A stretch of DNA of 64,000 bases from NCBI GenBank assembly GCA_965232515.1, contig CBDDPY010000002.1, positions 1,216,001 to 1,280,000 on the forward strand, given 5' to 3'. The notes under the pieces are model-generated. The model saw nothing but the letters and a program-made list of their open reading frames with translations. It ran no database searches and was not told the origin of the DNA. The stretch comes from Alphaproteobacteria bacterium. GTDB lineage: Bacteria; Pseudomonadota; Alphaproteobacteria; GCA-2731375. Below, piece by piece: positions 1,820 through 14,991 of the stretch. A program made the translations under genes and the position numbers. Positions within the stretch are counted from its first letter, which is position 1. Every line of letters begins with the position of its first letter.

Positions 1820-1984
1820 GAAAGTCGACGGATCTGATGAGCAAGGGCCGGATTGACTCCGCTCGCCCGCGTGTGCGTCCATTGGGCCAGCGAGGTCCCG
1901 CCTTAACCAGTTGTTAACTGGAATCGACGAAGCCTCGGATCGACCTAGATGTAGGTGTCGGTGACGTTGCTTCCGAGGAAGTCG

Positions 1985-3274
1985 ATGCCAATGAACTCCA
2001 AGCTGGCCTGCATCGCCGGCGCGGCCATCTGCGCGCTGGGCACGGAGGCGGGCGCGCTGACATTAACGGCGGGCTCGGCCTGGCCGTCACCGACGATCGC
2101 GGTCTGCTGGGACGGACCGCGCAAAGCGCACAAGCAGGAACGCCGGATGGTCCGCAAGGCCATCGCCGCGACATGGGAGCGGGAAAGCGCCGTCCGGTTC
2201 ACCGGCTGGCGCGCCTGTCACGACGACTCGGCCGGCATTCGCATCGCCTTTGAAAACTCACACCCCCGAACCAACGGGCGGGGAACCGGGATCGACGGAC
2301 TGTCGAAAGGCGTGATCCTGCCACCGCTGTGGAGCGTGGCGGCGCTGTCGATCAACCTGAAGGCCACGGTGCACGAATTCGGCCACGCGCTCGGCTTCGG
2401 CCATGAGCATGCCCGCAGCGACGCGCCCGAGCCCAAGCGCTGCGGCGCCTTCGACGGCACCGGCAAGCGCCATATCGAGCCGGATGTGGCGATCACGCCG
2501 TTCGACGTGGACTCGATCATGGTCGCCTGCGTGTCGATGGCGACGGTTCGGTTTTCGCGCGGCACGCCGAGCCTGAGCGCGCTCGACATTTTCGGACTGA
2601 TCCGCACCTACGGCTCGAATCCGAAGAACGTTTTGGATCGGGACGAGACCGGCGACCGTTTCGGCGCCGCCTTGCTGGTGCGCGACATGGACGGCGACGG
2701 AGTCGCCGATCTGATGGTCGGCGCGCCGGGCGAAGACGGCGGCAGCGGCGCCGTCTATCTCTACAGGGGCGATCGCAAACGCGGCTTCCGGCCGCTGGCG
2801 CGATACACGCCGGCCGACTTCGGCATCGGCGACGCCGACGGCTACCGGTTCGGGTCGGCGATGACCTGGCGGACGGCGACCGGCGCCGCGCCGGCCCGGC
2901 TGATCGTACATGCCAACCATCCGACCGATGGGGCCGGCTTCCAACTGGCCGTCGCCGCCGGCAGCGCGCCTGACGTGGCGGGGCGGTCCGACATGCCGGT
3001 GCCGCCGCCACGTCCGAGGACCGCCGCCTTGATGCCGGATCTGGCCACGCCGCCGATGTTCGGTTTTCCCGACCTCTCCGGCCGCGGCGGGCGAGACCTG
3101 CGGGTGCAGTGGCACGACCTCGACGGCGACGGCATCGACGACGCCGTGATCGGGGCGCCGCACGCCGACGGCGCGGCGGAACGCTCCGGCGCCGTGGTGA
3201 TCCTGCGGGGTCAAACCGATACTGGGTCAAGTGCGAAGGCGGCAGCCTGGTACTGGTTCGGACAAGCTTACTAG
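1985..3274 (+). CDS. Secreted zinc metalloprotease (metzincin/M12-like) with C-terminal FG-GAP repeats
   Basis: Signal peptide; HEFGHALGFGHEH zinc motif; DSIM Met-turn; FGAAL..DMDGDGVADLMVGAP and DLDGDGIDDAVIGAP repeats; start 1985 or 1991. Confidence 0.8.
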   Translation: MPMNSKLACIAGAAICALGTEAGALTLTAGSAWPSPTIAVCWDGPRKAHKQERRMVRKAIAATWERESAVRFTGWRACHDDSAGIRIAFENSHPRTNGRGTGIDGLSKGVILPPLWSVAALSINLKATVHEFGHALGFGHEHARSDAPEPKRCGAFDGTGKRHIEPDVAITPFDVDSIMVACVSMATVRFSRGTPSLSALDIFGLIRTYGSNPKNVLDRDETGDRFGAALLVRDMDGDGVADLMVGAPGEDGGSGAVYLYRGDRKRGFRPLARYTPADFGIGDADGYRFGSAMTWRTATGAAPARLIVHANHPTDGAGFQLAVAAGSAPDVAGRSDMPVPPPRPRTAALMPDLATPPMFGFPDLSGRGGRDLRVQWHDLDGDGIDDAVIGAPHADGAAERSGAVVILRGQTDTGSSAKAAAWYWFGQAY

Positions 3275-3440
3275 CACTTACGCCTACTCGAACACGCACT
3301 CCATACCATCAGCCGGCCGTCCGCCTTTTCCTCGGGGTGACGTCGCAGCCGGCCGCGTGCTGTATCATGGTGGTTCAATGACGGTCTTTCGTTCGTGTAT
3401 GCCAGCGGGAAGGCAGCATCTGAGAGCGCTCGGGAACCCG

Positions 3441-3938
3441 ATGAAGATCTGGACATTGGCCACATGGCTGGTCGCATTGTGTGCCTCGGTCATCATCGCA
3501 ATGGCGGTGTTCACGGAGAAGACGTTCCATGTCGAAATCGTCATACCGGCGCCGCCAGCCGCCGTGTGGTCGGTACTGACGGATTCGACGGCCTACAAGG
3601 AATGGAACCCGGTCTTCGTCCGTGTCGAGGGCGAGTTCCGCGAGGGAGAAGAGGTTGAGAGCCTCGTTCGGGAACCCGACGGCGACGAGACCGCGATCAC
3701 CTCGACGATCGTCAGGCTGATCCCGGAAAGGGAGATAAACCAATATGGCGGGCTTCCCGGGTTCATTACCTTCGATCACAAATGGCTGCTGGAGCCGGTC
3801 GACGGCGGAACCAAGGTCATTCAGCACGAGGTCGATCGCGGCTTCTGGATCTGGTTCTGGGACTCAAGCTGGGTCGAGCCCGCCTACGCCAGCGCGAACG
3901 AGGCCTTGAGAGAACGTGTGCTCCAGCTTGCTGAATGA
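3441..3938 (+). CDS. SRPBCC/polyketide cyclase family protein
   Basis: IVIPAPPAAVWSVLTDSTAYKEWNP SRPBCC signature after an N-terminal hydrophobic segment. Confidence 0.8.
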   Translation: MKIWTLATWLVALCASVIIAMAVFTEKTFHVEIVIPAPPAAVWSVLTDSTAYKEWNPVFVRVEGEFREGEEVESLVREPDGDETAITSTIVRLIPEREINQYGGLPGFITFDHKWLLEPVDGGTKVIQHEVDRGFWIWFWDSSWVEPAYASANEALRERVLQLAE

Positions 3939-3982
3939 ACGCCGCTGACCGCCCAGTTCAGCTGCCCGCATTCAGTCGTCGC

Positions 3983-4474
3983 TCAATCGTCGTCGTCGTC
4001 CTTGCCGGGTTTGCGGACCACGAGGCCGATCCGGTAGACGTCGTCGATCTTGCCGACGAGGAAGACCGAGGTCGGCAGCTTGCCGGTGCTGTTGATCGGC
4101 GCCTCGTCATAGACGACGCGGACGCGGTTGGTCATCTTCATGTTGGGCACCAGCTTGCCCGTGGCGAGCGCGCCGTCGAGGCCGTTCTCGGGGAAGTCCT
4201 CGAAGGTGATCGAGAGGATCGGCCGGCCCAGGCCGCGGCGGATCTGAAAGGCGACGATCCGGCGTTTGATCTTGCCGGCGTCCTTCCAGTAGACGAGCTC
4301 TTCGAAACGACCGTAATCGCGATTTTCGATCGCTTCTTGGATGGTCGCCACGAGCGTGTCCGGGTCGCGCGGCAATTCCGCGGCGGCGGCGACCGGGGCC
4401 GCCAACGCGACGAAGAACAGGCCGGGGGCAACGAGCCCCCGGCCGAACAGTTTCGTCACAAGACGCGTAAACAA
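3983..4474 (-). CDS. Hypothetical exported protein, last gene of the PQQ cluster
   Basis: Signal-peptide-like N-terminus (...APVAAAA/E), starts 5 bp after PQQ gene stop, C-terminal KDDDDD. Confidence 0.7.
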   Translation of the reverse strand: MFTRLVTKLFGRGLVAPGLFFVALAAPVAAAAELPRDPDTLVATIQEAIENRDYGRFEELVYWKDAGKIKRRIVAFQIRRGLGRPILSITFEDFPENGLDGALATGKLVPNMKMTNRVRVVYDEAPINSTGKLPTSVFLVGKIDDVYRIGLVVRKPGKDDDDD

Positions 4475-4479
4475 GACGT

Positions 4480-6234
4480 CTATTCCTTCAACGCGAAGAC
4501 CCAGATGACGCCGCCCTGGGGCACGTCAGGAATGCGGCCGGCCGGCAGCATGTCCTTCAGGAGCCCCTGCATCCGCTCGGCGTCGACGCCCCAACCGGAC
4601 TGCACGGCGATGTACTGCACGCCGTCGACCTCGTAGGAGGCCGGCACCGCGGTTACGCCCGAGTTGGTCGGGAATTCCCACAGCATCTCGCCGTTGGTCG
4701 CGTTGAACGCGCGGAACATGCGATCGTTGGTGCCGCCGGTGAAGATCAGGTTGCCGCCGGTCGACAGCAACGGACCCCAGTAGGGCGTGTCGTTGAAGGC
4801 GTGCTCCCAGACCATCTCGCCCTTGTCGAGGTCCCAGGCCTGCAGCTTGCCGATCGGCACGGGCTTCGACACATCCACGCTCTCATGGAAGCGCAGCGAC
4901 GACAGGATCACGTCGATCGGCACGCCGATATAGAGCTCGCCGGGCTCCCGCTCACCGATGGGTGCGCCGCCGAATTCCGAGCACAGGTTCTCGTGCGCCG
5001 GAATGTAGAACAGCTTGGTGTCGGGGTTGTACGCCTCCGGCGGCCAGTCCTTGCCGCCCCACAGGCTGGGGCAGAAGAATGCCGACTTGTTCGTGCCCGG
5101 CGTGCGCGCTTCGACATAGGTCGGCCGTCCGGTCTCCGGATCGATCGACTCGAAGGCGTTCTGGATCACGTACTTGTCGGCGGCGATGAAGTTGATCGGA
5201 CCTTCCGGCGTCCGCTCCATCGACCAGATAAAGCCGTTGCGGCCGGCATGCACCAGGCCCTTCACCTTCTGGCCGTCACGCTCGAAGTCGATCAGCAACG
5301 GCGCGGAGACTTCGTCCCAGTCCCAGGCATCGTTCCAGTGATACTGGTGATGGCCCTTGATCTCGCCGCTGTCGATGTCGAGCGCGATCACCGACGTGGT
5401 GTAGAGGTTGTCGCCGGGACGCGTGTCGGGCATCCACGGACCGCCGTTGCCGGTGCCGAAATAGGCCAGGCCGGCTTCGGCGTCGTAGTTGCCCTGCATC
5501 CAGACGGAACCGCCGCCGGTCTTCCAGCTGTCGCCCTTCCAAGTGTCGTGGCCGGGCTCGCCCGGTCCCGGAATGGTGTAGGTCTTCCAGGCCTCGGCGC
5601 CGGTCTCGGCATCGAGCGCGACGACATAGCCGCGGATGCCGTATTCGCCGCCGGAGACACCGGTGACGACCTTGCCGCGGGCGACGAGCAGCGACAGCGT
5701 CGAATAGTAGCCGTCGGTGTAGTCGCCGATGAGGACGTCCCAGACGACCTCGCCGGTCTTGGCGTCGAGCGCGACCACGCCCGCGTCAACCGTGGCCATA
5801 TAGACCTTGTCGCCGTAAAGGGCGGCGCCGCGATTGGTCGGGTGCAGCTGGAACAGATCCTCCGGCAGCTCACGGACGTAACGCCAGATCTCGGTGCCGG
5901 TCTTGGCGTCGAGCGCAATCACCTGGTTCTGCGGCGTCGACACGAACATCATGCCGTCGTTGACCATCGGCGGCGACTGGTGACCTTCGGTAACCCCGGT
6001 CGAGTAGCTCCAGACCGGGACCAGGTTCTTGACGTTATCGGCCGTGATCTGGTTCAGCGGGCTGTGACCCCAACCCTCGTAGTTGCCGCGCCACTGCAGC
6101 CAGTTTTCCGGCTCCGGATTGGTCAGACGTGCGTCCGTCACCGCGTTGTAGTCGGCGGCATTCGCGAGCCCAACGCCGCCGACGCCCAGCGCCAGGAGCG
6201 TTGCACATAGTGATCTCGTACAGCGTGATCTCAT
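4480..6234 (-). CDS. PQQ-dependent dehydrogenase, methanol/ethanol family, atypical
   Basis: Signal peptide; AVTDARL, Trp-docking repeats ALDAKTGxxxW, GGEYGIRG, YFGTGNGGPW, RPGDNLYT, WDWDEV, CPSLWGGKDW; GGAGG RBS. Confidence 0.93.
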   Translation of the reverse strand: MRSRCTRSLCATLLALGVGGVGLANAADYNAVTDARLTNPEPENWLQWRGNYEGWGHSPLNQITADNVKNLVPVWSYSTGVTEGHQSPPMVNDGMMFVSTPQNQVIALDAKTGTEIWRYVRELPEDLFQLHPTNRGAALYGDKVYMATVDAGVVALDAKTGEVVWDVLIGDYTDGYYSTLSLLVARGKVVTGVSGGEYGIRGYVVALDAETGAEAWKTYTIPGPGEPGHDTWKGDSWKTGGGSVWMQGNYDAEAGLAYFGTGNGGPWMPDTRPGDNLYTTSVIALDIDSGEIKGHHQYHWNDAWDWDEVSAPLLIDFERDGQKVKGLVHAGRNGFIWSMERTPEGPINFIAADKYVIQNAFESIDPETGRPTYVEARTPGTNKSAFFCPSLWGGKDWPPEAYNPDTKLFYIPAHENLCSEFGGAPIGEREPGELYIGVPIDVILSSLRFHESVDVSKPVPIGKLQAWDLDKGEMVWEHAFNDTPYWGPLLSTGGNLIFTGGTNDRMFRAFNATNGEMLWEFPTNSGVTAVPASYEVDGVQYIAVQSGWGVDAERMQGLLKDMLPAGRIPDVPQGGVIWVFALKE

Positions 6235-6298
6235 TCCATCCCTCCTTCTGCCGACCTTCACCGACCGCGTTGTTGCGGCCGGCGGCACCCCAAGGCCG

Positions 6299-6925
6299 TT
6301 ATTTTTTCGCGCCGCCGGGCTTCCGGGTGAAGCCCTTAAGAGCGACGACGAAACCCTCATCGTCCAGACCGACGGGCACCATCGGTAACTGCCGCCGTGC
6401 CGGACCGCTCATCACGGTGCCCTCGGACAGGGCGTCGAATTCGGACAAATGGCAGTGGCAGCGTAAGTGCCGTTCCTCGGCTTTCCAGGATTTGATCGTG
6501 CAGCTTCGATGCGTGCAGAGCGCCGAATAGATCAACACGCCATCGACGCTGCGCTCGCGCGTCGGCTCGTCCATCTCGTTCGTGTCGAGCCGCAGCATCA
6601 GCACGCGGTTCAGCCGGTTGCGGCGGCGGATGACGCCGACCTCGGGATCGAACGGAAAGCCCTCGATGGGCCTCGCGCCGACCTCGAGCAGCTCCGGCCT
6701 CAAGAACTCGTTCTTCAGACTGCCCTTGATGATCTGAAAGCGATCGCCCGGCTGTGTCGGGCTCTTCTCCGGCTTGGTCGCGGCATCGGCGTCATCCAGG
6801 CCGAGTCCGACCCCAGCGGCGACGACCGCGCCACCGATCAAAAGATCCCGGCGGACAATTTCGACAGGGCCGGACGACTGTTTCCGACCCTTGGGACGCT
6901 CTACAGGCGTGTCACGATCATTCAA
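6299..6925 (-). CDS. Tat-exported Rieske [2Fe-2S] protein
   Basis: RRDLLIGG twin-arginine plus hydrophobic helix; CTHRSC...CHCHLS Rieske boxes; TTG start with GGAGGAGG RBS. Confidence 0.88.
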   Translation of the reverse strand: MNDRDTPVERPKGRKQSSGPVEIVRRDLLIGGAVVAAGVGLGLDDADAATKPEKSPTQPGDRFQIIKGSLKNEFLRPELLEVGARPIEGFPFDPEVGVIRRRNRLNRVLMLRLDTNEMDEPTRERSVDGVLIYSALCTHRSCTIKSWKAEERHLRCHCHLSEFDALSEGTVMSGPARRQLPMVPVGLDDEGFVVALKGFTRKPGGAKK

Positions 6926-7102
6926 ACGACTGTTGCCTCCTCCCGACCCGCGCGCCTTTTCGGCGTCGCGGTTATGTGTCTTATTTTTCGACGGGGCGCT
7001 TCCCTAACCCCCGTCGAGATGACGCAACTTGAGAAAACGGTAACGGAAACGTTAATGCGCGCCAAACAAAAACTTGCCGGCGCGCGCCCCGCGCAATGGC
7101 GA

Positions 7103-8428
7103 TCAGGCGCCGCGGCGGCCGGCCGGACGCGACGCGTCGCCGATATCGAGCTCGGTGCGCGGCCCGAGCAGCCATGTCAGCCAACCGACAATGCGTGCGC
7201 CAAGGCCGCGCAACCGCTGCCGGCGGGAGTGTCGCGTCAACGCCTTGACCAGGCGGACGTGGTCGACCGGCGACGTTCCTTCGGCAAAGACGGCCCGCAC
7301 CACATGCCCGTAGTCGTCGGGCGCCGGCATGTCCGTCAATGACAAGCCGGAGGCGTCGGCCCAGCGGCGCACCGCGGCGTAGATTTCGCGCGTCGCGTCG
7401 GCCCGCGCGCAGTCGCGGGCCAGCCGCCGGTCCGCCGGCGTCGGCAGCGCCAGCCAAAACGCTACGGCCCCCAGAACCGAGAAGGGAAACAGCACCAAGC
7501 CCAGCAGCGAGGCGGCCACCAGACCGTCGCGTTCATGCCGGTCCCGGGCGTCGTTCAACAACCGTTCAGCCACGGCCGCCCGGTCGACGGGCAGAGGCTC
7601 GATGCGCTTGCCCGATACCGCGACTTTCTTTCGCACGCGTTCGCGCGGATCCCAGTAGGCCAGGTTGACCGGGCTGATATAGGCGACGCCGTTCGTCTCG
7701 ATCTTCAGGTCCCAGGCCTGCGTGACGGTGGCGATGACGCCGTCGCGCGTCACCTCGGTCGTGGACGTCACGCCGACGTCCGCGACGGTGACACCGCGGG
7801 TCCGGCCATGCTCGATCGCCGGCATGCGCTCGGCGGTGACGGCAAAGGCCTTCACGGTGACCTCGCGCCGGACAATGTCGTGCACGCGCAGTTCTTCGAG
7901 CGGCTTCGACCAGGTCTCGCTGATCTCGATCCGATCGCTGACCAGCCACCAGGAATCGGCGTAGCTGTCGTCGATACCCAAAACGTCCAGGCGGAGGTCG
8001 GCGCTGCGGTCGGCAAACGGACGCTCATCGCCGGACCGGGGCGACACGGCGCCGCGCACTTCGACGCCCGGGATCTCGAGCGGACCGCTCTGGTTCGGAA
8101 AGATCGCCAGCGCGGTTTCGAAGACATAGCCATCGCCGGCATAGGAGCGCACGCGTTCGGTGCGCGGCCGCTGCAGGCGGATCACTTGCGCGTTGGGGAT
8201 CTCGGGCAGGGTGAGATCGAGCTCCTCGAACGGATAGCGCGAGGCGACCTGCACGCCCAGGACCAGCTGACCGTGCAGGTAGACGCCATCGACCACGGCG
8301 TCGGCCGGCCTCAGGGTCACGGTGAGCTGGGGAACCTCGGGCATGGTGAGCGCGCGTTCATTGTCCTGAGCCGCGGCCAGCGTCGGCGGCAGCGCGATCA
8401 GCAACGACATCAGCAGCCGGCGCATCAT
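7103..8428 (-). CDS. BatD-like exported/membrane-anchored protein
   Basis: Signal peptide, beta-rich body with FPNQSGPLEIP and YWDP motifs, C-terminal TM helix; terminal position of MoxR operon. Confidence 0.72.
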   Translation of the reverse strand: MMRRLLMSLLIALPPTLAAAQDNERALTMPEVPQLTVTLRPADAVVDGVYLHGQLVLGVQVASRYPFEELDLTLPEIPNAQVIRLQRPRTERVRSYAGDGYVFETALAIFPNQSGPLEIPGVEVRGAVSPRSGDERPFADRSADLRLDVLGIDDSYADSWWLVSDRIEISETWSKPLEELRVHDIVRREVTVKAFAVTAERMPAIEHGRTRGVTVADVGVTSTTEVTRDGVIATVTQAWDLKIETNGVAYISPVNLAYWDPRERVRKKVAVSGKRIEPLPVDRAAVAERLLNDARDRHERDGLVAASLLGLVLFPFSVLGAVAFWLALPTPADRRLARDCARADATREIYAAVRRWADASGLSLTDMPAPDDYGHVVRAVFAEGTSPVDHVRLVKALTRHSRRQRLRGLGARIVGWLTWLLGPRTELDIGDASRPAGRRGA

Positions 8429-9231
8429 TCCGTCCGGCTCGCCAGCAGGCGCTTGTAGGCGGCATAGAGGCGGGCCGCCAGGACCCGCGCCGGGTCGTCC
8501 TTGATTTCCCGCAGCAGGATCTCGGCGGCCTGCGCGCTCTCGCGCCGGACGGCGGCCGACTGCCCGCCGGACAGGCCCTCGACCTCGCGCGCCTCGGCGA
8601 CGGCACCTTGCGCCGGGCTGCCCTGCGGATCGTCTGACATGCGCTGTTCGCCCGGCTGCCCGGGCCGGTCGCTGCGCCCGCCTTCGCTGGTCGCCTGGTT
8701 CGCCTGTCGGGTCTGACCGTCCTGGGCCTTGCCCTGCTCGATCTCTTCGCTGTCGCCGGTTGACGGGTCCGGACGTTCGCGGTCGCCATCCCGCCAGCTT
8801 CCGAGCCTTCGTTCGGACCGGCTTTCGGCGAGCATCTGCTGCTCAAGGCTCTCGGCGCGCAGCACCAGATCGAGATTGAACTGCGCATCCTGGTGCGCGG
8901 GATCGAGCTGCAAGGCCTTGCGGTAGGCGGCTTTGGCGCCGTCCCATTCCTGCAGCCGGGCATAGGCATTGCCGGTGTTGTAGAGGGCCAGCACGCTCTC
9001 CTGCAAAAAGAACTCGCCGACCGCGCGCCGGTAGCGGCCGGCGCGATATTCGGCGACGCCCCGCCAGTGCGCGTCTTCGAACAGATGCACCGCCTCGTGC
9101 GGCCGGCCGTTCTGCAGCAGATCCATGGCGACGTCGAACGCCTCAGGCGGCCGATCCAGCCGCGGCAGCAAAACCGCAATCGCGGTGGCGAGCGCCAGCA
9201 GGACGGACAGAACGGCGAGCCGCACGATCAT
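8425..9231 (-). CDS. TPR protein (BatC/MxaK-like)
   Basis: WRGVAEYRAG, YNTGNAYARL, AYRKALQLDPAHQDAQFNL TPR; low-complexity linker; I-D-DP C-terminal motif; ATGA coupling. Confidence 0.8.
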   Translation of the reverse strand: MIVRLAVLSVLLALATAIAVLLPRLDRPPEAFDVAMDLLQNGRPHEAVHLFEDAHWRGVAEYRAGRYRRAVGEFFLQESVLALYNTGNAYARLQEWDGAKAAYRKALQLDPAHQDAQFNLDLVLRAESLEQQMLAESRSERRLGSWRDGDRERPDPSTGDSEEIEQGKAQDGQTRQANQATSEGGRSDRPGQPGEQRMSDDPQGSPAQGAVAEAREVEGLSGGQSAAVRRESAQAAEILLREIKDDPARVLAARLYAAYKRLLASRTE

Positions 9232-10088
9232 CGCGCCACCCGCCGGCGAAACAGGCCGAGCCACAACAGCATGGCGAGACCGATCAGCCATGGCGTGAGA
9301 TCGAGCCGCTGATCTTTCGTGCGCGTCCGTTTCAGCTCGTCGACCGCGTCGTTAAGCTCCGCGACGATCCGCGGCACGTCGGACAGACCGTCGAGGCTGG
9401 CGCCGCTGGCCGCGGCGTATTCCGTCCAGGCCGCCAGGCGATTGCCCGGCACCACGATGTCGCGCAGCGCCTGCATCGCCGGCGCGATCGGGCTGTTGCG
9501 CGGTGGCTCACCGCCGCTGACCAGGACGACCTGTCCGGCGACGATGCCGGCCGCCGTCAACACGGACTGCGCATGCGCCAATCCGAGGTTGAGCGCGCGG
9601 CCTGTCCGCGGCATCAGCTCCGGCTCGACGACCTGCAGGTAACGCAACAGATAGGCATGGTCGGTGGTCAGCGGGACAACATCGAATGCATCGGCGGCGA
9701 CGGCGACCAGCGCCGTCGGCACCTCGGGCGACTCCTCGATCAGTCGCTGCACGAACAGGCGTTCGTCCGTGACGTTGGCGGCGCCACTCAGATCCAGAAC
9801 GACGACGCGGCCGGTAAGGTTGCCGTAATCCGGCGCCTGCGCCGAATCCAGGGCCGGCCGCGCCAGGGCGACGACGAGAACCACCAGCACCGCGAGGCAG
9901 AGCGTCAGCTGCGGATTTCGTCCCTCGGCAATGCCCCGGCCGAGATAGGCGCGCAGCCGCGGCTCGACCACGCGCCGCCAATGGCCGGGCAGGGCGGCGA
10001 CCGCGACATCGCCGCGATGCCAGATCAGCACGCCGGCCGCAGTCAGCGGCAGCAGCAGCAACAGGGCGATCGGCAGTCCGAAGCTCAT
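9228..10088 (-). CDS. VWA domain protein (BatB/MxaL-like), degenerate MIDAS
   Basis: VALARP, VVLDLSG, VVPLTTD, PELMP..G motifs; N- and C-terminal TM segments. Confidence 0.8.
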   Translation of the reverse strand: MSFGLPIALLLLLPLTAAGVLIWHRGDVAVAALPGHWRRVVEPRLRAYLGRGIAEGRNPQLTLCLAVLVVLVVALARPALDSAQAPDYGNLTGRVVVLDLSGAANVTDERLFVQRLIEESPEVPTALVAVAADAFDVVPLTTDHAYLLRYLQVVEPELMPRTGRALNLGLAHAQSVLTAAGIVAGQVVLVSGGEPPRNSPIAPAMQALRDIVVPGNRLAAWTEYAAASGASLDGLSDVPRIVAELNDAVDELKRTRTKDQRLDLTPWLIGLAMLLWLGLFRRRVAR

Positions 10089-11020
10089 GCGCCCACCTCC
10101 CGCCAGCCGACGAGGAGCAGCATGCCGAGCGCCAGCGTCAACGGCGCCCAGGTCCAATCGTCGATCAGGTGTGGCTGGTCGGCATCGACGGCCGTCGGCG
10201 CGATGCGGTCAATCTCGGCATAGACCTGCCCGAGCGTCTCTGGCGAGGTCGCGGCAAAATAGCGGCCGCCCGTGCGCTCGGCGACGTCGCGCATCGCGGC
10301 CGCGTTCTCCGCGTCGATGACGCCGGCAAAGCCGACGACGTGAACGCGGATATCGGTTTCGGCCGCCAGCGCCGCGGCGTCGAGCGCCGACAACGCACCG
10401 GTATTGGTTTCACCGTCGGACAGCACGACCAGCAGGCGGTCGGCGGGCGGCTCCTTGCGCAGGACCTGAACGGCCAGGCCGATAGCGCGGCCGAGATCGG
10501 TCTTGCGGCCGGGCAGGCCAATGGCGACCTCGTTCAACATACGGGCGACGGCACGGGTATCGAAGGTCAGCGGCGCAATCATGTAGGCGTCGCTGGCGAA
10601 GGTAATCAGACCCACACGGTCGCCGGTGCGGTCCTTGACGAAGGCGCCGAGCAGGTCGCGGACCACGTCGATGCGCTCGACCTTGTCGGCGCCGCGACGC
10701 ATGTCCGTGTTGGCCATGCTGGCCGACAGATCGACGGCGACGAGCAGATCGCGGCCCGTCGGCGACAGCAGCACATCACCGCGTATGTGCGGGCCGGCCA
10801 ATGCGACAACCAGGGCCAGCCAGCCGACGATGCGCGGGACGAGGCCGCGCGGCAGCGACACAAACGCACCGCCGCCGGTTCGGGAGACCGCCATCAGCCA
10901 ATGGCCGACGCCGGCCGGCACCCGCACCGCGGCCCGGGCCGGCAGCATCGGCAGCAGATACCAGGCAAGCAGCGGCAACGGCAGCAGGAGAAAGGCCCAG
11001 ATCCGCGCGAACTCGATCAT
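10085..11020 (-). CDS. VWA domain protein (BatA/MxaC-like)
   Basis: MIEFARIWAFLLLPLP N-terminus, DLSASM MIDAS, GDRVGLITF, APLTFD, LSDGETN, TGGRYF. Confidence 0.9.
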   Translation of the reverse strand: MIEFARIWAFLLLPLPLLAWYLLPMLPARAAVRVPAGVGHWLMAVSRTGGGAFVSLPRGLVPRIVGWLALVVALAGPHIRGDVLLSPTGRDLLVAVDLSASMANTDMRRGADKVERIDVVRDLLGAFVKDRTGDRVGLITFASDAYMIAPLTFDTRAVARMLNEVAIGLPGRKTDLGRAIGLAVQVLRKEPPADRLLVVLSDGETNTGALSALDAAALAAETDIRVHVVGFAGVIDAENAAAMRDVAERTGGRYFAATSPETLGQVYAEIDRIAPTAVDADQPHLIDDWTWAPLTLALGMLLLVGWREVGA

Positions 11021-11385
11021 TGCCGCAACGCCGCCCTCACGAACTGTTGCACCTTGGCGACGTCATCGGGTCCGACCCGCTCGACGGGGAGATAGACGCA
11101 GTCCGGCGGCGGACCGGCGCGCGACCGCCGGCTGGCCGCGGCGGCGAGCCTGATCAGGCGCGACCATCGTTCTGCGGAATTCGGCTCTCGCTCGACCTCC
11201 TCGAGACGGGCGCGGGCCTGCGCGCGCCATAGCCGCCGGCGGCGGTAGGCAATGATGACGGCGATCAGAACGAGAATGCCGACGACGACGAACGGCTCGA
11301 AGGCGATGTCGAACCGCGCAACGTCCTGGGGCGGCACGGGCAGGTGGATGTCGCGCAGGTCCTTCAGAAGTTCCTCGGGCGTCAC
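11017..11385 (-). CDS. DUF4381-like small membrane protein
   Basis: LKDLRDIHLP motif followed by TM helix and Arg run; GTGA overlap with DUF58 stop. Confidence 0.75.
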   Translation of the reverse strand: MTPEELLKDLRDIHLPVPPQDVARFDIAFEPFVVVGILVLIAVIIAYRRRRLWRAQARARLEEVEREPNSAERWSRLIRLAAAASRRSRAGPPPDCVYLPVERVGPDDVAKVQQFVRAALRQ

Positions 11386-12284
11386 GGCCGTCGTTCCCGT
11401 GGCAGGATGTCGAGCGCGTCTTCGACGAACCAACCGCAATTCTGCAATCTACGCCGGCGCTCCTGTCGCAGGCGCGCGATCGTGTCGCGCGTCATCTCGG
11501 ATCCATCGGCGCGGACAACGGCGGTGTCGCGCCGGCGGCGCGCGGCGTTGCGCAACGGATAGCGGCCAGAGGGAATGGCGTCGCGAAACATCGCATCCTC
11601 GACCACGATCGCGCGCAAGGTGCGGCGTTCGGCCAGCACGGCGGAGCGTTTCTCGAACACCGGGTCGATCGTGCCGAAGTCGCTGATCAGACAGATCTCG
11701 TCCCGCTCGCGCAACAGCGGCGACACGCGTTCCAAAACGATCGGCAAGTCCGGATCGTCGGCGCCGTCCCGGACGGCCGCGTAATGCGCCTGCAATCGTT
11801 CCAGCAGCCGCATGACATGTTGACGACCGCGGCGTGGCGCCAGAACGGTCGCATCGGCGCCGGCGACGAGGCCGACGGGTTCCTGCGTCGCGAAGGCTTC
11901 CCAGGACAACCGCGCCGCCACCAGCGCGGCCGTCTTGGCCATCAGCCGATCGCGGGTGCCGAAATAGAGGGCCGGGTGGAGGTCGACGACCAGCATGCGG
12001 GCCCGATGCGATTCAGCGGCAAAGCGCCGCATCTGCACGCTACCGCTGCGCGCGGTCGCCAGCCAATGGATCCAGCGCACGTCGTCGCCGGTCTGATAGG
12101 GACTGATGCCGTCGAAGTCGAGCGTCTGCGCCCAGCCGCGCCCGGTGCGCTCGCCGCTGCCAAATCGCGTGCCGGCGCCGCCGGGCCGGCGGGTATGACG
12201 CGGCTGGACGGCGACCAGCTCGGCCAGATCGAGGCCGATGGCCTGCGCTTCCAGGGTTCGGTCGGGACGCCGCTCAAACCACAC
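11382..12284 (-). CDS. DUF58 (MxaS-like) protein
   Basis: DFDGISPYQTGDDVRWIHWLATAR signature; ISDF; follows MoxR. Confidence 0.88.
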   Translation of the reverse strand: MWFERRPDRTLEAQAIGLDLAELVAVQPRHTRRPGGAGTRFGSGERTGRGWAQTLDFDGISPYQTGDDVRWIHWLATARSGSVQMRRFAAESHRARMLVVDLHPALYFGTRDRLMAKTAALVAARLSWEAFATQEPVGLVAGADATVLAPRRGRQHVMRLLERLQAHYAAVRDGADDPDLPIVLERVSPLLRERDEICLISDFGTIDPVFEKRSAVLAERRTLRAIVVEDAMFRDAIPSGRYPLRNAARRRRDTAVVRADGSEMTRDTIARLRQERRRRLQNCGWFVEDALDILPRERRP

Positions 12285-13275
12285 GAACCTGATCCAGTAG
12301 CGCGCCGATGATGGAACCGGGTGGAACGCCGTCGGCCTCGGCCCGATAGTTCAGGCCAATGCGATGCCGCAGCACCGGCGGCGCCAGGGATTCGACATCC
12401 TCGGGCAGGACATGATCTCGGCCGGCGAGCCAGGCCCGGGCCTGGGCCGCGCGGACCAGCATGATGGAGCCGCGCGGCGAGATGGGATGCGACAGATGCT
12501 CAGCCACACCGTCGAGCGGCGCGGGTTCGCCGCGAGTGCCGGCGACCAGGCGCACGACGAAATCCTTGATCAGCTCGGAGGCATGCACGCGGACGACGGC
12601 GCGCCGGGCGGCGTGGACGTCGGCCTTCGACACCAGATCGGCCACGGCGCCATCGTCTTCGTCAAGAACCTCGCCCATGACCAGATCGAGGATCTCGCGC
12701 TCGACCGTCATGGCGGGATAGTCCATCTCCACATGCACGAAGAAACGGTCGAGCTGGGCCTGCGGGAGGTCCCAAGTGCCGTCATGCTCGATGGGGTTCT
12801 GGGTCGCGATGACGAAAAACGGCTGCTCGAGCGGATGGCTGGTGTCGCCGACCGTGATCTGGCGCTCCTCCATGGCCTCCAGCAGCGCCGACTGCACCTT
12901 GGCCGGGGCCCGGTTGATCTCGTCGGCGAGGATGAAGTTGGCAAACAGCGGCCCGCGCTGGAATTCGAAGCGATGCTCGTGCGGATGGTAGATCGGCGCG
13001 CCGGTCAGATCGCTCGGCAGCAGGTCCGGCGTGAACTGGATACGGTTGAAGCTGCCCTCGATGGCGTGGGCGAGCACTCGCGCGAGCCGCGTCTTGGCGA
13101 GGCCCGGCGCGCCCTCCAACAACACGTGCCCGTCTCCCAGCAGGGCGACGAGAAGATGCTCGGCGGCATCGTTCTGACCGACCACCGAAGCGCGCAGCCG
13201 GTCGCGCAAACCGGCAAACCGCCGCCAGACCGGTTGCGCTTCAATGGCTTCGTTCTCGACCAGCACGCCGTCCAT
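12274..13275 (-). CDS. moxR: MoxR family AAA+ ATPase
   Basis: GHVLLEGAPGLAKT, RIQFTPDLLPSD, DEINRAPAKVQSALLEAMEE, ATQNPIE. Confidence 0.95.
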   Translation of the reverse strand: MDGVLVENEAIEAQPVWRRFAGLRDRLRASVVGQNDAAEHLLVALLGDGHVLLEGAPGLAKTRLARVLAHAIEGSFNRIQFTPDLLPSDLTGAPIYHPHEHRFEFQRGPLFANFILADEINRAPAKVQSALLEAMEERQITVGDTSHPLEQPFFVIATQNPIEHDGTWDLPQAQLDRFFVHVEMDYPAMTVEREILDLVMGEVLDEDDGAVADLVSKADVHAARRAVVRVHASELIKDFVVRLVAGTRGEPAPLDGVAEHLSHPISPRGSIMLVRAAQARAWLAGRDHVLPEDVESLAPPVLRHRIGLNYRAEADGVPPGSIIGALLDQVRVV

Positions 13276-13436: not shown

Positions 13437-14255
13437 ATGCAACGACCGGGCACGGGAGGCGGCGTGGACACGCGCGAGAAGTTCCTGCTGACGGCGGAAC
13501 GACTGTTCGGAGAACGCGGGATCAACGGCGTCTCGCTGCGCGAGATCAGCCGCGCCGTCGGGCAGCGCAATCCCTCGGCGCTGCAATACCATTTCGGCAG
13601 CCGCGACGCGCTGATCGAGGCGATCCTGGCCAAGCGCATGGGCGTGCTCGACAAGCAGCGGCACGCTTTCCTCGAGGATCTGGCACGCAATGACGGCAAG
13701 GTCAACGTTCGCAACATCGTCCGTGCCATCAAGCAGCCGCTGATCGATCTGCTGCAGGCCGAGGATGGCCCGGTGCAATACCTGCACTTCCTGGTCGAGG
13801 TGTATCTGAACGACGAGATCGACGTGAACGAGCTGGTGTCGGACAAGTATGACGCCGGCCTGCGCCTGGGCTACCGCCTGTATCGGCAGGCCTTGCCGGA
13901 TCTGCCCGAACCGATCGCACGCCAGCGCTATCGCTGGCTCGTACGCTCCGGTCCGTTTCTGTTCGCCGACCTGCACGGAACGATCAAGCGGCGACGCAAG
14001 ACGGGCCGGCCCTTCGATATCGAGCGGGCGCTCGAAAGCACCATCGACATGCTGGTCGGCGCGCTGACCGCGCCGGTCTCCAACGAAACGAAAACGCGGC
14101 TCGCCGCCTCGACGCGGAACGAGCAACGGGAGGAGGACCCCAATGAGCGAGAACGAGATCCAGGTGAAGCCGGTCGCCGGCGCACTCGGCGCGGAAATCC
14201 GGGGCGTCGACATGGCACGGCCGCTCGGCAACCAGACCTTCAAGGAGATTCATGA
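13437..14255 (+). CDS. TetR/AcrR family transcriptional regulator
   Basis: AERLFGERGINGVSLREISRAVGQRNPSALQYHFGSRDAL HTH; ORF overlaps tauD start by 113 nt. Confidence 0.88.
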   Translation: MQRPGTGGGVDTREKFLLTAERLFGERGINGVSLREISRAVGQRNPSALQYHFGSRDALIEAILAKRMGVLDKQRHAFLEDLARNDGKVNVRNIVRAIKQPLIDLLQAEDGPVQYLHFLVEVYLNDEIDVNELVSDKYDAGLRLGYRLYRQALPDLPEPIARQRYRWLVRSGPFLFADLHGTIKRRRKTGRPFDIERALESTIDMLVGALTAPVSNETKTRLAASTRNEQREEDPNERERDPGEAGRRRTRRGNPGRRHGTAARQPDLQGDS

Positions 14256-14991
14256 TGCGCTGATGGCGCATCAGGTGATCTTCTTCCGCGACCAGGAGAT
14301 CACGCCGGCCGAGCACGTCGCCTTCGCGCGCCAGTTCGGCGAACTTCACATCCATCCCTACGCGCCGAGCCTCGAAGACCAGCCCGAGGTGTTGATCCTG
14401 AAGAGCAGCAAGGCGAACCGCTCGGCCGCCAATGCCTGGCATTCCGACGTGACGTTCCAGGAGAAGCCGCCGCTGGGCTCTATCCTGCTGGCGCGCGAGG
14501 TGCCGGATCATGGCGGTGACACCATGTGGGCCGACATGTACGCCGCCTACGAGACGCTGTCGGCGCCGATGAAGCGCTATCTCGACGGCATGACGGCGAT
14601 CCATACCGCCGGCCGGGCCAGCTTCGAGAAGGCCTACGACGATCAGATCGACGATGACCGCAAGCGGGAGATCCGCAGCCAGCGCCTGGCCGAGCCGGCC
14701 GTCGAGCATCCGGTCGTGCGCACGCATCCAGTGACCGGTCGCAAGGCGCTGTTCGTCAACTCGATCTTCACCCAGCGGCTGAGGGGCGTGCCGCGCAAGG
14801 AATCGCAGGCCGTGCTCGACTATCTGTTCGAACATCTGCGCACGCTCGAATTCACCTGCCGCTTTCGCTGGGAACCGGGGTCGGTGGCGTTCTGGGACAA
14901 CCGCTGCACCCAGCACTACGCCATTGCCGACTATGGCGACGCCACCCGAATCATGCATCGCGTCACCGTGAACGGCGACCGGCCCGTGTAG
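14143..14991 (+). CDS. TauD/TfdA family Fe(II)/2-oxoglutarate dioxygenase
   Basis: WHSDVTF, GGDTMW, HPVVRTHP, WDNRCTQHYA, MHR; GGAGGAGG RBS. Confidence 0.95.
   Translation: MSENEIQVKPVAGALGAEIRGVDMARPLGNQTFKEIHDALMAHQVIFFRDQEITPAEHVAFARQFGELHIHPYAPSLEDQPEVLILKSSKANRSAANAWHSDVTFQEKPPLGSILLAREVPDHGGDTMWADMYAAYETLSAPMKRYLDGMTAIHTAGRASFEKAYDDQIDDDRKREIRSQRLAEPAVEHPVVRTHPVTGRKALFVNSIFTQRLRGVPRKESQAVLDYLFEHLRTLEFTCRFRWEPGSVAFWDNRCTQHYAIADYGDATRIMHRVTVNGDRPV

Follow-up and report, generated by a model that had tools for sequence, protein, structure and literature searches.

The methanol/ethanol quinoproteins, whose cofactor is pyrroloquinoline quinone (PQQ), have as their accepted hallmark a vicinal disulfide, the role of which is still debated, and to our knowledge every characterised member passes its electrons to a haem protein, azurin or ubiquinone. 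Here we describe a ten-gene cluster in a 64,000-nucleotide stretch of DNA (the window) from an Alphaproteobacteria bacterium (GenBank assembly GCA_965232515.1, contig CBDDPY010000002.1, positions 1,216,001 to 1,280,000 of the forward strand), in which a Rieske [2Fe-2S] protein, a dehydrogenase of this family and a small exported protein are encoded one after another (the trio), next to a module of MoxR and VWA genes. We read the trio as a periplasmic, probably lanthanide-dependent quinoprotein alcohol dehydrogenase for which a soluble bc-type Rieske protein would be the electron acceptor or partner, assisted in a sub-clade by a MoxR-VWA metal-insertion module and by the small, NTF2-like accessory protein, and we put the probability of this reading at about 60%.

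Several described systems are close to this locus, each in a different part. The dehydrogenases PedH, ExaF and XoxF share with the trio enzyme the TIGR03075 family, the metal ligands including an extra aspartate, and the periplasmic location; unlike them, the trio dehydrogenase is without the vicinal cysteine pair (Cys-Cys), has a loop shorter by four residues and forms a clade of its own, and where they have cytochrome c partners it has a Rieske gene nearby and no cytochrome c gene. The MxaFI locus likewise sets a PQQ dehydrogenase gene beside genes for a MoxR AAA+ ATPase, a DUF58 protein and VWA proteins, but no homolog of MxaI, MxaJ or MxaG (cytochrome cL) was seen at the trio cluster, whose accessory set includes, as Bat operons do, TPR and BatD-like genes, whose NTF2-like protein stands where one might expect a chaperone or small subunit, and whose module is not universal in the clade. 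In AioAB, too, a catalytic periplasmic subunit is encoded beside a Rieske protein with a twin-arginine translocation (Tat) signal, and an electron exit through the Rieske protein, as proposed here from the genes, would be a further likeness. However, AioA is a molybdopterin subunit co-exported by Tat, whereas the catalytic partner in the trio is a PQQ beta-propeller with a Sec-type signal, and the trio Rieske protein is far closer to the Rieske domains of bc complexes than to AioB. With the former, which react with quinol in their parent complex, it shares both cluster boxes, the disulfide cysteines and a full-length alignment, but it has no cytochrome b or c1 gene adjacent and, read by eye, probably a cleaved signal peptide in place of a membrane anchor. 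Finally, the seven-gene module resembles Bat operons (MoxR-DUF58-BatA-BatB-BatC-BatD) in gene order and domains and gives weak matches to the BatA-BatD models; all of these matches lie under the curated cut-offs, and at 20 of 32 assessable loci the module, unlike a Bat operon, is linked to a PQQ dehydrogenase.

The dehydrogenase, the Rieske protein and their small neighbour

Pfam and NCBIfam scans of the open reading frames (ORFs) of the window place ten co-oriented genes, all on the minus strand, at 3983-13275, in the order that an earlier reading of this DNA from its letters only (the sequence-only reading) had given. They are listed here in the direction of transcription (lengths in amino acids, aa), followed by one gene beyond the cluster.

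12274..13275, minus strand: MoxR-class AAA+ ATPase, 333 aa (PF07726 AAA_3, 205.5 bits; AAA_lid_2, 77 bits)
11382..12284, minus strand: DUF58 protein, MxaS-like VWA relative (PF01882, 86.6 bits)
11017..11439, minus strand: DUF4381-like small membrane protein (PF14316, 23.5 bits, under the 27.2 cut-off; likely start GTG at 11385)
10085..11020, minus strand: BatA-like VWA protein (PF00092, 66.8 bits; NF047508 BatA, 112.8 bits, under cut-off)
9228..10157, minus strand: degenerate second VWA protein (PF13519 VWA_2, 24.7 bits, under the cut-off of 27; likely start ATG at 10088)
8425..9291, minus strand: BatC-like TPR protein (TPR_2, 48 bits; NF047507 BatC, 36 bits, under cut-off; likely start ATG at 9231)
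7103..8428, minus strand: exported or membrane protein in the BatD position, 441 aa (no Pfam match of its own; single copy in the genome)
6926..7102, minus strand: intergenic gap of 177 nt separating the Rieske gene from the MoxR module; may hold a promoter of the trio
6299..6925, minus strand: Tat-signal, bc-type Rieske [2Fe-2S] protein, 208 aa (PF00355, 32.9 bits)
4480..6234, minus strand: PQQ dehydrogenase, methanol/ethanol family (TIGR03075, 564.3 bits against a cut-off of 480.05; PF01011, 249 bits)
3983..4474, minus strand: exported 163-aa protein, tentatively NTF2-like, with a poly-Asp C-terminus (no Pfam or NCBIfam match)
1955..3274, plus strand: astacin-like metalloprotease with FG-GAP repeats (FG-GAP, 55 bits; Astacin, 24.5 bits)

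The dehydrogenase, which carries a Sec-type signal peptide as read by eye, looks active from its TIGR03075 score, its kept ligands, its invariant motifs and the presence of pqqC in its own genome and in four of five other trio genomes. Its closest solved relative is the "quinoprotein ethanol dehydrogenase" 6zcv/6zcw (354 bits), of which we take 6zcv to be the lanthanide enzyme PedH of Pseudomonas putida. The ligands of the metal and of PQQ (Glu in GGE, Asn in GTGN, the catalytic Asp, the extra Asp and Arg in RNG) align with those of 6zcv, and E197, N263, D305 and R332 are invariant in 23 sequences. Membership in the "empty" non-PQQ propeller family TIGR04528 (354 bits against a cut-off of 650) was rejected, because all cofactor ligands are kept and pqq genes are present.

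The dehydrogenase has no vicinal Cys-Cys over PQQ, and its loop there, four residues shorter, reads DLFQLHPTNRG in the window and in all 34 intact orthologs; the pair is kept in three PQQ dehydrogenase paralogs of the same genome, and identity to the paralogs is about 35-37%. The lanthanide-type Asp-x-Asp is present as WDWDE, aligned with WDFDG of 6zcv and again invariant in 34/34 intact orthologs. The extra aspartate is described as essential for lanthanide use in XoxF1 and ExaF (bioRxiv 10.1101/2020.02.25.964783), and the trio enzyme, to judge by this motif, probably uses a lanthanide as well. As far as the published XoxF-clade literature was accessible, it gave no clade name for this dehydrogenase, which could thus not be assigned within the numbering of XoxF and PQQ alcohol dehydrogenases.

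The Rieske protein carries the cluster boxes CTHRSC and CHCH, disulfide cysteines included. C137, T138, H139, C142, C156, C158 and H159 are invariant in 29 family sequences, at least 90% of which conserve the twin arginines R25/R26; by eye, the RR motif is followed by an Ala-x-Ala site and fits a cleaved Tat signal. In a profile comparison its best solved relative is the bc-complex Rieske domain 1NYK/3FOU, presumably from Thermus thermophilus, with a full-length alignment at 105 bits, above the actinobacterial QcrA (55-72 bits) and the AioB chains (41-45 bits), so that it is a stand-alone bc-type Rieske domain. Its neighbours in the window are the dehydrogenase and the MoxR module, with no adjacent cytochrome b or c1 gene. 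Among the 212 homologs in a large protein collection none bears a specific name.

Two family assignments of this protein were tried and rejected: QcrA/PetA, with 88.6 bits to NF050121 (cut-off 275) and 26 to TIGR01416 (cut-off 97), and AioB, with 39 bits to TIGR02694 (cut-off 95.65) and no AioA-like gene adjacent.

The third member of the trio, the 163-aa protein, carries a signal peptide, and its AlphaFold2 model (pLDDT 86.2) has three helices on a six-stranded sheet. Foldseek against the PDB returned weak NTF2-like matches (best 3k7c, E 2.2e-3, TM 0.38/0.54) and nothing at E <= 0.001, and all clusters returned by the ESM Atlas were without a name, the closest families that have one, DUF4864 and DUF4019, scoring below 0.9; the NTF2-like label is therefore kept tentative. 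A DDDDD tail at its C-terminus is conserved in the alignment, and the C-terminus of the Rieske protein in the trio clade is a conserved basic tail, RKPGGAKK, so that the two proteins end in opposite charges. The KK tail was seen only in the clade that also carries the 163-aa gene.

Conservation of the pair and its cytochrome-linked paralogs

The neighbourhoods show a conserved linkage of Rieske and dehydrogenase genes. When genomes, one for each species, were scanned with the Rieske profile, 36 loci came up, and a dehydrogenase gene (73-84% identical) follows the Rieske gene directly in all 35 that extend past it, the remaining one (L006), which stops 143 nt past the Rieske gene, being excluded from the count. 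The 163-aa gene is third in the same 35 of the 36 loci (partial in L009). The hosts include Paracoccaceae, Geminicoccaceae, Rhodobiaceae, Thalassobaculaceae, Minwuia, Kordiimonadales, Hyphomicrobiales and the gammaproteobacterial Granulosicoccaceae. Within the order to which the window belongs the distribution is patchy, as the Rieske gene occurs in 3 of 33 genomes. In one metagenome-assembled genome (L022) the dehydrogenase and MoxR matches each come in two pieces, which are likely assembly frameshifts and not pseudogenes.

The genome of the window provides a contrast. Seven members of the PQQ dehydrogenase family are encoded in its 7.39 Mb, and three of them have a cytochrome c adjacent or fused: the gene just downstream of a XoxF-like paralog encodes a 154-aa CxxCH protein, another paralog is a quinohaemoprotein, and a Cys-Cys-less one at 7.277 Mb, beside pqqE, pqqC and pqqB, precedes a gene for a 146-aa cytochrome c (PF13442). 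This last paralog lies about 4 kb from a second module of MoxR, DUF58, DUF4381/BatD, BatA-VWA, VWA and TPR genes. The 7.277-Mb locus has the same parts list as the trio cluster, with a cytochrome c in place of the Rieske protein. It also holds (7272001-7291500) genes for DUF1800, DUF1501 and S8 peptidase proteins. At the trio cluster itself no CxxCH motif was found in any ORF of at least 90 aa in window positions 1-24000, in keeping with the claim that no cytochrome c is encoded there.

Beyond the trio, 2,172 proteins among 1.84 billion cluster representatives match the dehydrogenase at E <= 1e-30. In a FastTree phylogeny of 121 sequences, into which no named references (XoxF1-5, MxaF, ExaA/ExaF, PedE/PedH) were placed, the trio orthologs form their own clade (support 1.0), nested in a 16-tip group that is also Cys-Cys-less (xHPTNRG, WDWDE; support 1.0), and the sister group of the latter (P0126 and P0127) keeps the Cys-Cys. 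With three Cys-Cys-less relatives as queries, a metagenome scan matched at least 599 stretches and confirmed at least 486, of which the best 80 (50-62% identity) were examined. Twelve of these had too little upstream sequence and were left out; in 30 of the 68 assessable loci a Rieske gene stands directly upstream. Its product has the boxes CTHxGC...CPCH, in most cases an RR signal, and only 30-44% identity to the trio Rieske protein. The Rieske-linked lineages are scattered over the whole Cys-Cys-less clade, as expected for an old pairing, and the closest sister of the trio clade is Rieske-linked throughout. The pairing appears, from these neighbourhoods, to be older and much wider than the ten-gene cluster. 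This reach far beyond the cluster type, the loss of the Cys-Cys, the lanthanide-type aspartate and the frequent IorAB-type neighbour described below had all been missed by the sequence-only reading.

Neighbours in the wider clade are varied hydrolases such as epoxide hydrolase, lactonase and S9 peptidase, and the 163-aa protein has no match in the best 80 loci within 6-kb flanks. In one Rieske-linked sub-clade (HYTNRG; L063, L073, L074, L077, L087, L111) an epoxide hydrolase gene lies directly 3′ of the dehydrogenase gene, and a 451-aa CxxCH protein with no Pfam match is encoded divergently upstream of the Rieske gene. In several Rieske proteins of the wider clade (L063, L073 and relatives) the twin-arginine signal ends in a lipobox-like cysteine (...LTDC, ...IAGC), and these may be Tat-exported lipoproteins.

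The surroundings of the trio itself are recurrent. A pair of the IorAB/aldehyde oxidoreductase type (a 2Fe-2S small subunit and a molybdopterin large subunit with a Tat signal) occurs in the flanks of 23 of the 36 loci; it is not near the trio in the genome of the window. A GntR/FCD regulator is another recurrent neighbour, and genes for an acyl-CoA ligase and a 2-hydroxyacyl-CoA lyase (NF058623, 1043 bits) adjoin the trio in L001, L008, L027 and L031 (e.g., L031:14447-18196). Such neighbours suggest that an alcohol, perhaps a 1,2-diol, would be oxidised in the periplasm to the acid, which would then be activated and undergo C1 cleavage. In the same four loci the GntR/FCD regulator also adjoins the trio and IorAB-type genes lie in the same flanks; ligase, lyase and IorAB together hint at a route from diol to 2-hydroxy acid to formyl-CoA. 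The astacin-like FG-GAP protein adjoins the trio in 15 of the 36 loci, the window being additional; the window copy at 1955-3274 is exported, carries the motif HEFGHALGFGHE and matches no NCBIfam model.

The trio is represented among RNA-seq-library contigs of two studies, whose strains are about 97% alike, and in each of X5, X6 and X7 one contig reaches across its three genes; being contigs, these sequences attest presence in RNA libraries, which is no proof of transcription or of a single transcript. In two of these three the similarity to the window stops at 6977, 52 nt upstream of the Rieske start, and stretches without cover in 3900-8500 (X4-X7, e.g., beyond 7918) are uninformative.

The MoxR-VWA module

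The seven genes upstream of the gap had been described as translationally coupled, and indeed stop and start codons overlap at all six junctions: five of the overlaps are of the 4-nt ATGA/GTGA kind, and that between MoxR and DUF58, where the GTG start of DUF58 overlaps the MoxR stop, is of 11 nt. A GTGA at 11385 joins the DUF58 stop to the DUF4381-like start, and ATGA overlaps lie at the start of the BatA-like VWA gene, at 10088 for the second VWA gene and at 9231 for the TPR gene. After the module the overlaps give way to gaps of 177, 64 and 5 nt ahead of the Rieske, dehydrogenase and 163-aa genes, respectively. The TTG start of the Rieske gene is preceded by the Shine-Dalgarno sequence GGAGGAGG, and the dehydrogenase ATG at 6234 by AGGAGG. 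A consensus scan for sigma-70-like promoters gave 0 sites, and terminator-like sites numbered 4 against 5.4 expected, none of them between the modules, both scans being uninformative for such high-GC DNA.

Of 32 assessable loci, 20 have the MoxR module next to the trio, 18 of them directly upstream of the Rieske gene (3 cut by contig ends) and 2 downstream of the trio (L022, L029); in the other 12 it is absent from the fetched flanks, and a further 4 loci are not assessable. The MoxR orthologs are 55-68% identical across 17 trio loci. This link between module and trio is real and specific to part of the clade. From the difference between 20 of 32 trio loci and 0 of 80 wider-clade loci it can be called clade-specific. 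The "dedicated" role that the sequence-only reading had given the module is putative and less secure than the Rieske pairing, in view of the copies elsewhere in three of five tested genomes whose trio locus is without it, the absence from all 80 wider-clade loci and the 177-nt gap.

The "BatD" label of the last gene in the module is plausible, not shown: the position speaks for it, as do weak matches to PF13584 in 4 of 12 orthologs (best E 0.0016), and the 441-aa protein of the window has no Pfam match itself. A BatD-like ortholog is found elsewhere in the genome in three of the five tested genomes whose trio locus is without the module; the query matched none in the other two (G004, G005), which are possibly incomplete assemblies. 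Among the 33 genomes of the window's order, only that of the window has a BatD-like gene, which makes the module an unlikely housekeeping operon in this order. The genome has three MoxR paralogs, two of them close to a gene for a PQQ dehydrogenase.

As to function, MxaFI cannot receive its Ca2+ without MxaR, S, A, C, K and L, according to PMC12276312, and its PQQ is inserted by MxaJ. By analogy, the MoxR-DUF58-VWA-VWA-TPR-BatD-like module most likely aids metal cofactor insertion in the sub-clade of the trio. Another account, which we consider possible and on balance doubtful, is that the module is a general envelope or aerotolerance operon of the Bat type, which simply accompanies the trio in some lineages and has no specific part in maturation. 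It would explain why the module is missing beside 12 of 32 assessable trio loci and all 80 wider-clade loci, why it lies elsewhere in the genome in three of five tested cases, why 177 nt part it from the Rieske gene, and why its best NCBIfam matches are the Leptospira BatA, BatB and BatC models, all under cut-off. It fits less well with an adjacency that recurs across families in two arrangements, with a BatD-like gene confined, in the order, to the cluster-bearing genome (1/33), with the second MoxR-VWA module of the same genome, which is also near a PQQ dehydrogenase and pqq genes, and with the need of MxaFI for the homologous MxaRSACKL.

The cluster is bordered by a divergent TetR gene (13437-14255, plus strand) and a convergent SRPBCC-like gene (3231-3938, plus strand). 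The TetR product is PsrA-like, and beside it a TauD taurine dioxygenase is encoded (14143-14991, plus strand; NF007104, 351 bits); in their longest ORFs the two share about 110 nt, so that one of them probably has its true start further on.

The proposed electron route and its alternatives

In the proposed mechanism, the trio would constitute a system in which a quinoprotein dehydrogenates an alcohol or diol in the periplasm. This dehydrogenase would be exported by Sec and would acquire its PQQ, and probably a lanthanide ion, after export. The oxidation of the alcohol would yield PQQH2, which would be re-oxidised in one-electron steps by the soluble, Tat-exported bc-type Rieske protein; elsewhere in the family this task falls to a cytochrome c, be it cL, c550 or a haem domain fused to the enzyme. 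The loss of the Cys-Cys and the shorter loop over PQQ would accompany this change of partner, the Rieske protein would hand the electrons on to some periplasmic or membrane acceptor, and the NTF2-like protein with its acidic tail would be an accessory subunit or a chaperone. The PQQ couple lies near +90 mV and bc-type Rieske clusters at +150 to +300 mV, so that a step from PQQ to Rieske is thermodynamically reasonable.

Complex prediction with the mature dehydrogenase and the Rieske protein gave a median ipSAE of 0.44 (runs 0.13, 0.75 and 0.44), while none of the three controls exceeded 0.00; the runs share at least 82% of their contacts, and the partner pLDDT is at least 88. The mark used lets through 58 of 80 solved complexes and 2 of 110 mismatched pairs, and those passing at 0.60 or less comprise 7 of the 80 solved complexes and both mismatches. 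The pair is weakly supported by this prediction. The proposal that a Rieske protein replaces the cytochrome, put forward by the sequence-only reading, has held at the level of the genes, in 35/35 genome loci, in 30/68 wider-clade loci, in the three cytochrome-linked paralogs and in a fusion protein (P0121, below); the modelled contact with the dehydrogenase supports it weakly.

Several observations weigh against the proposed system. On the side of the interaction, the tool rates the complex as "weak", with a score as low as 0.13 in one run out of three; no protein that would accept electrons from the Rieske protein was found, the neighbourhoods examined containing no conserved cytochrome, cupredoxin or membrane partner. 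On the side of the cysteine loss, the metagenome protein P0121 (1075 aa, 57% identical to the window dehydrogenase) is Cys-Cys-less and has a fused cytochrome c domain (CARCH), and the Cys-Cys-less paralog at 7.277 Mb adjoins a cytochrome c, so that the loss need not imply a Rieske partner. In the wider clade something other than a Rieske gene stands upstream in 37 of the 68 assessable loci, and a cytochrome c gene in 1 of the 68. As regards metal supply, the case for lanthanide use has a single motif as its basis, MoxR-module genes occur in 0 of 80 wider-clade loci within the 6-kb flanks and are missing from the fetched flanks of 12 of 32 assessable trio loci, a 177-nt gap parts module and trio in the window, and the two other Rieske-positive genomes of the order have no BatD-like match.

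P0121 has, by eye, an SMP-30/lactonase-type propeller at its N-terminus, followed by an acidic linker, the cytochrome c domain and the dehydrogenase.

A bolder version of the proposed system can be formulated, to which we give rather little credence: an undescribed, widespread clade would have lost the Cys-Cys "gate", a soluble Rieske protein would oxidise PQQH2 directly, as at a Qo site and outside any bc complex, and the MoxR-VWA module with the acidic-tailed NTF2-like protein would provide dedicated lanthanide loading in an alpha- and gammaproteobacterial sub-clade.

The Rieske protein might also be a stable small subunit of a heteromeric enzyme, in the manner of AioB, instead of a diffusing acceptor, with the NTF2-like protein as third subunit. 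We consider this unlikely. Strict gene order and adjacency in 35/35 loci would suit it, as would the complex run at 0.75, the agreement of contacts between runs, and the conserved tails of opposite charge, RKPGGAKK on the Rieske protein and DDDDD on the NTF2-like one. However, the median complex score of 0.44 and the run at 0.13 speak against a stable contact; the export routes, read by eye, differ, the Tat signal of the Rieske protein and the Sec-type signal of the dehydrogenase leaving no place for an AioAB-style co-export; and the NTF2-like gene is unmatched in 80/80 wider-clade loci, though the Rieske gene is kept there. The least probable option is that the Rieske protein serves another neighbour, such as the Tat-exported IorAB-type molybdenum aldehyde oxidoreductase (IorAB-like genes in the flanks of 23/36 loci, an IorB with a twin-arginine signal and no cytochrome subunit), or an unrelated process, the dehydrogenase reducing one of the several periplasmic c-type cytochromes encoded elsewhere in the genome; against it, the dehydrogenase gene is directly downstream in 35/35 assessable Rieske-profile loci, and Rieske and dehydrogenase genes adjoin with IorAB missing in the window itself, in 13/36 genome loci and in 29/30 Rieske-linked metagenome loci.

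No description of a PQQ dehydrogenase-Rieske pair was found in the literature searched, which left out many subscription papers and all supplements; PMC11697101 deals with intracellular archaeal Rieske proteins, not with a PQQ pair.

The pairing of PQQ dehydrogenase and Rieske protein suggests a previously undescribed electron exit for this enzyme family. If the Rieske protein is indeed the acceptor, a new periplasmic electron-transfer pair would be defined, and the function of the disulfide would become directly testable, since natural enzymes with and without the Cys-Cys, and with either partner, could be compared. The probable lanthanide enzymes would, moreover, gain a new group, with marine and soil bacteria as its hosts. 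The neighbours of the clade (IorAB aldehyde oxidoreductase, acyl-CoA ligase, 2-hydroxyacyl-CoA lyase and epoxide hydrolase) point to the oxidation of diols or other alcohols, which would be of environmental interest.

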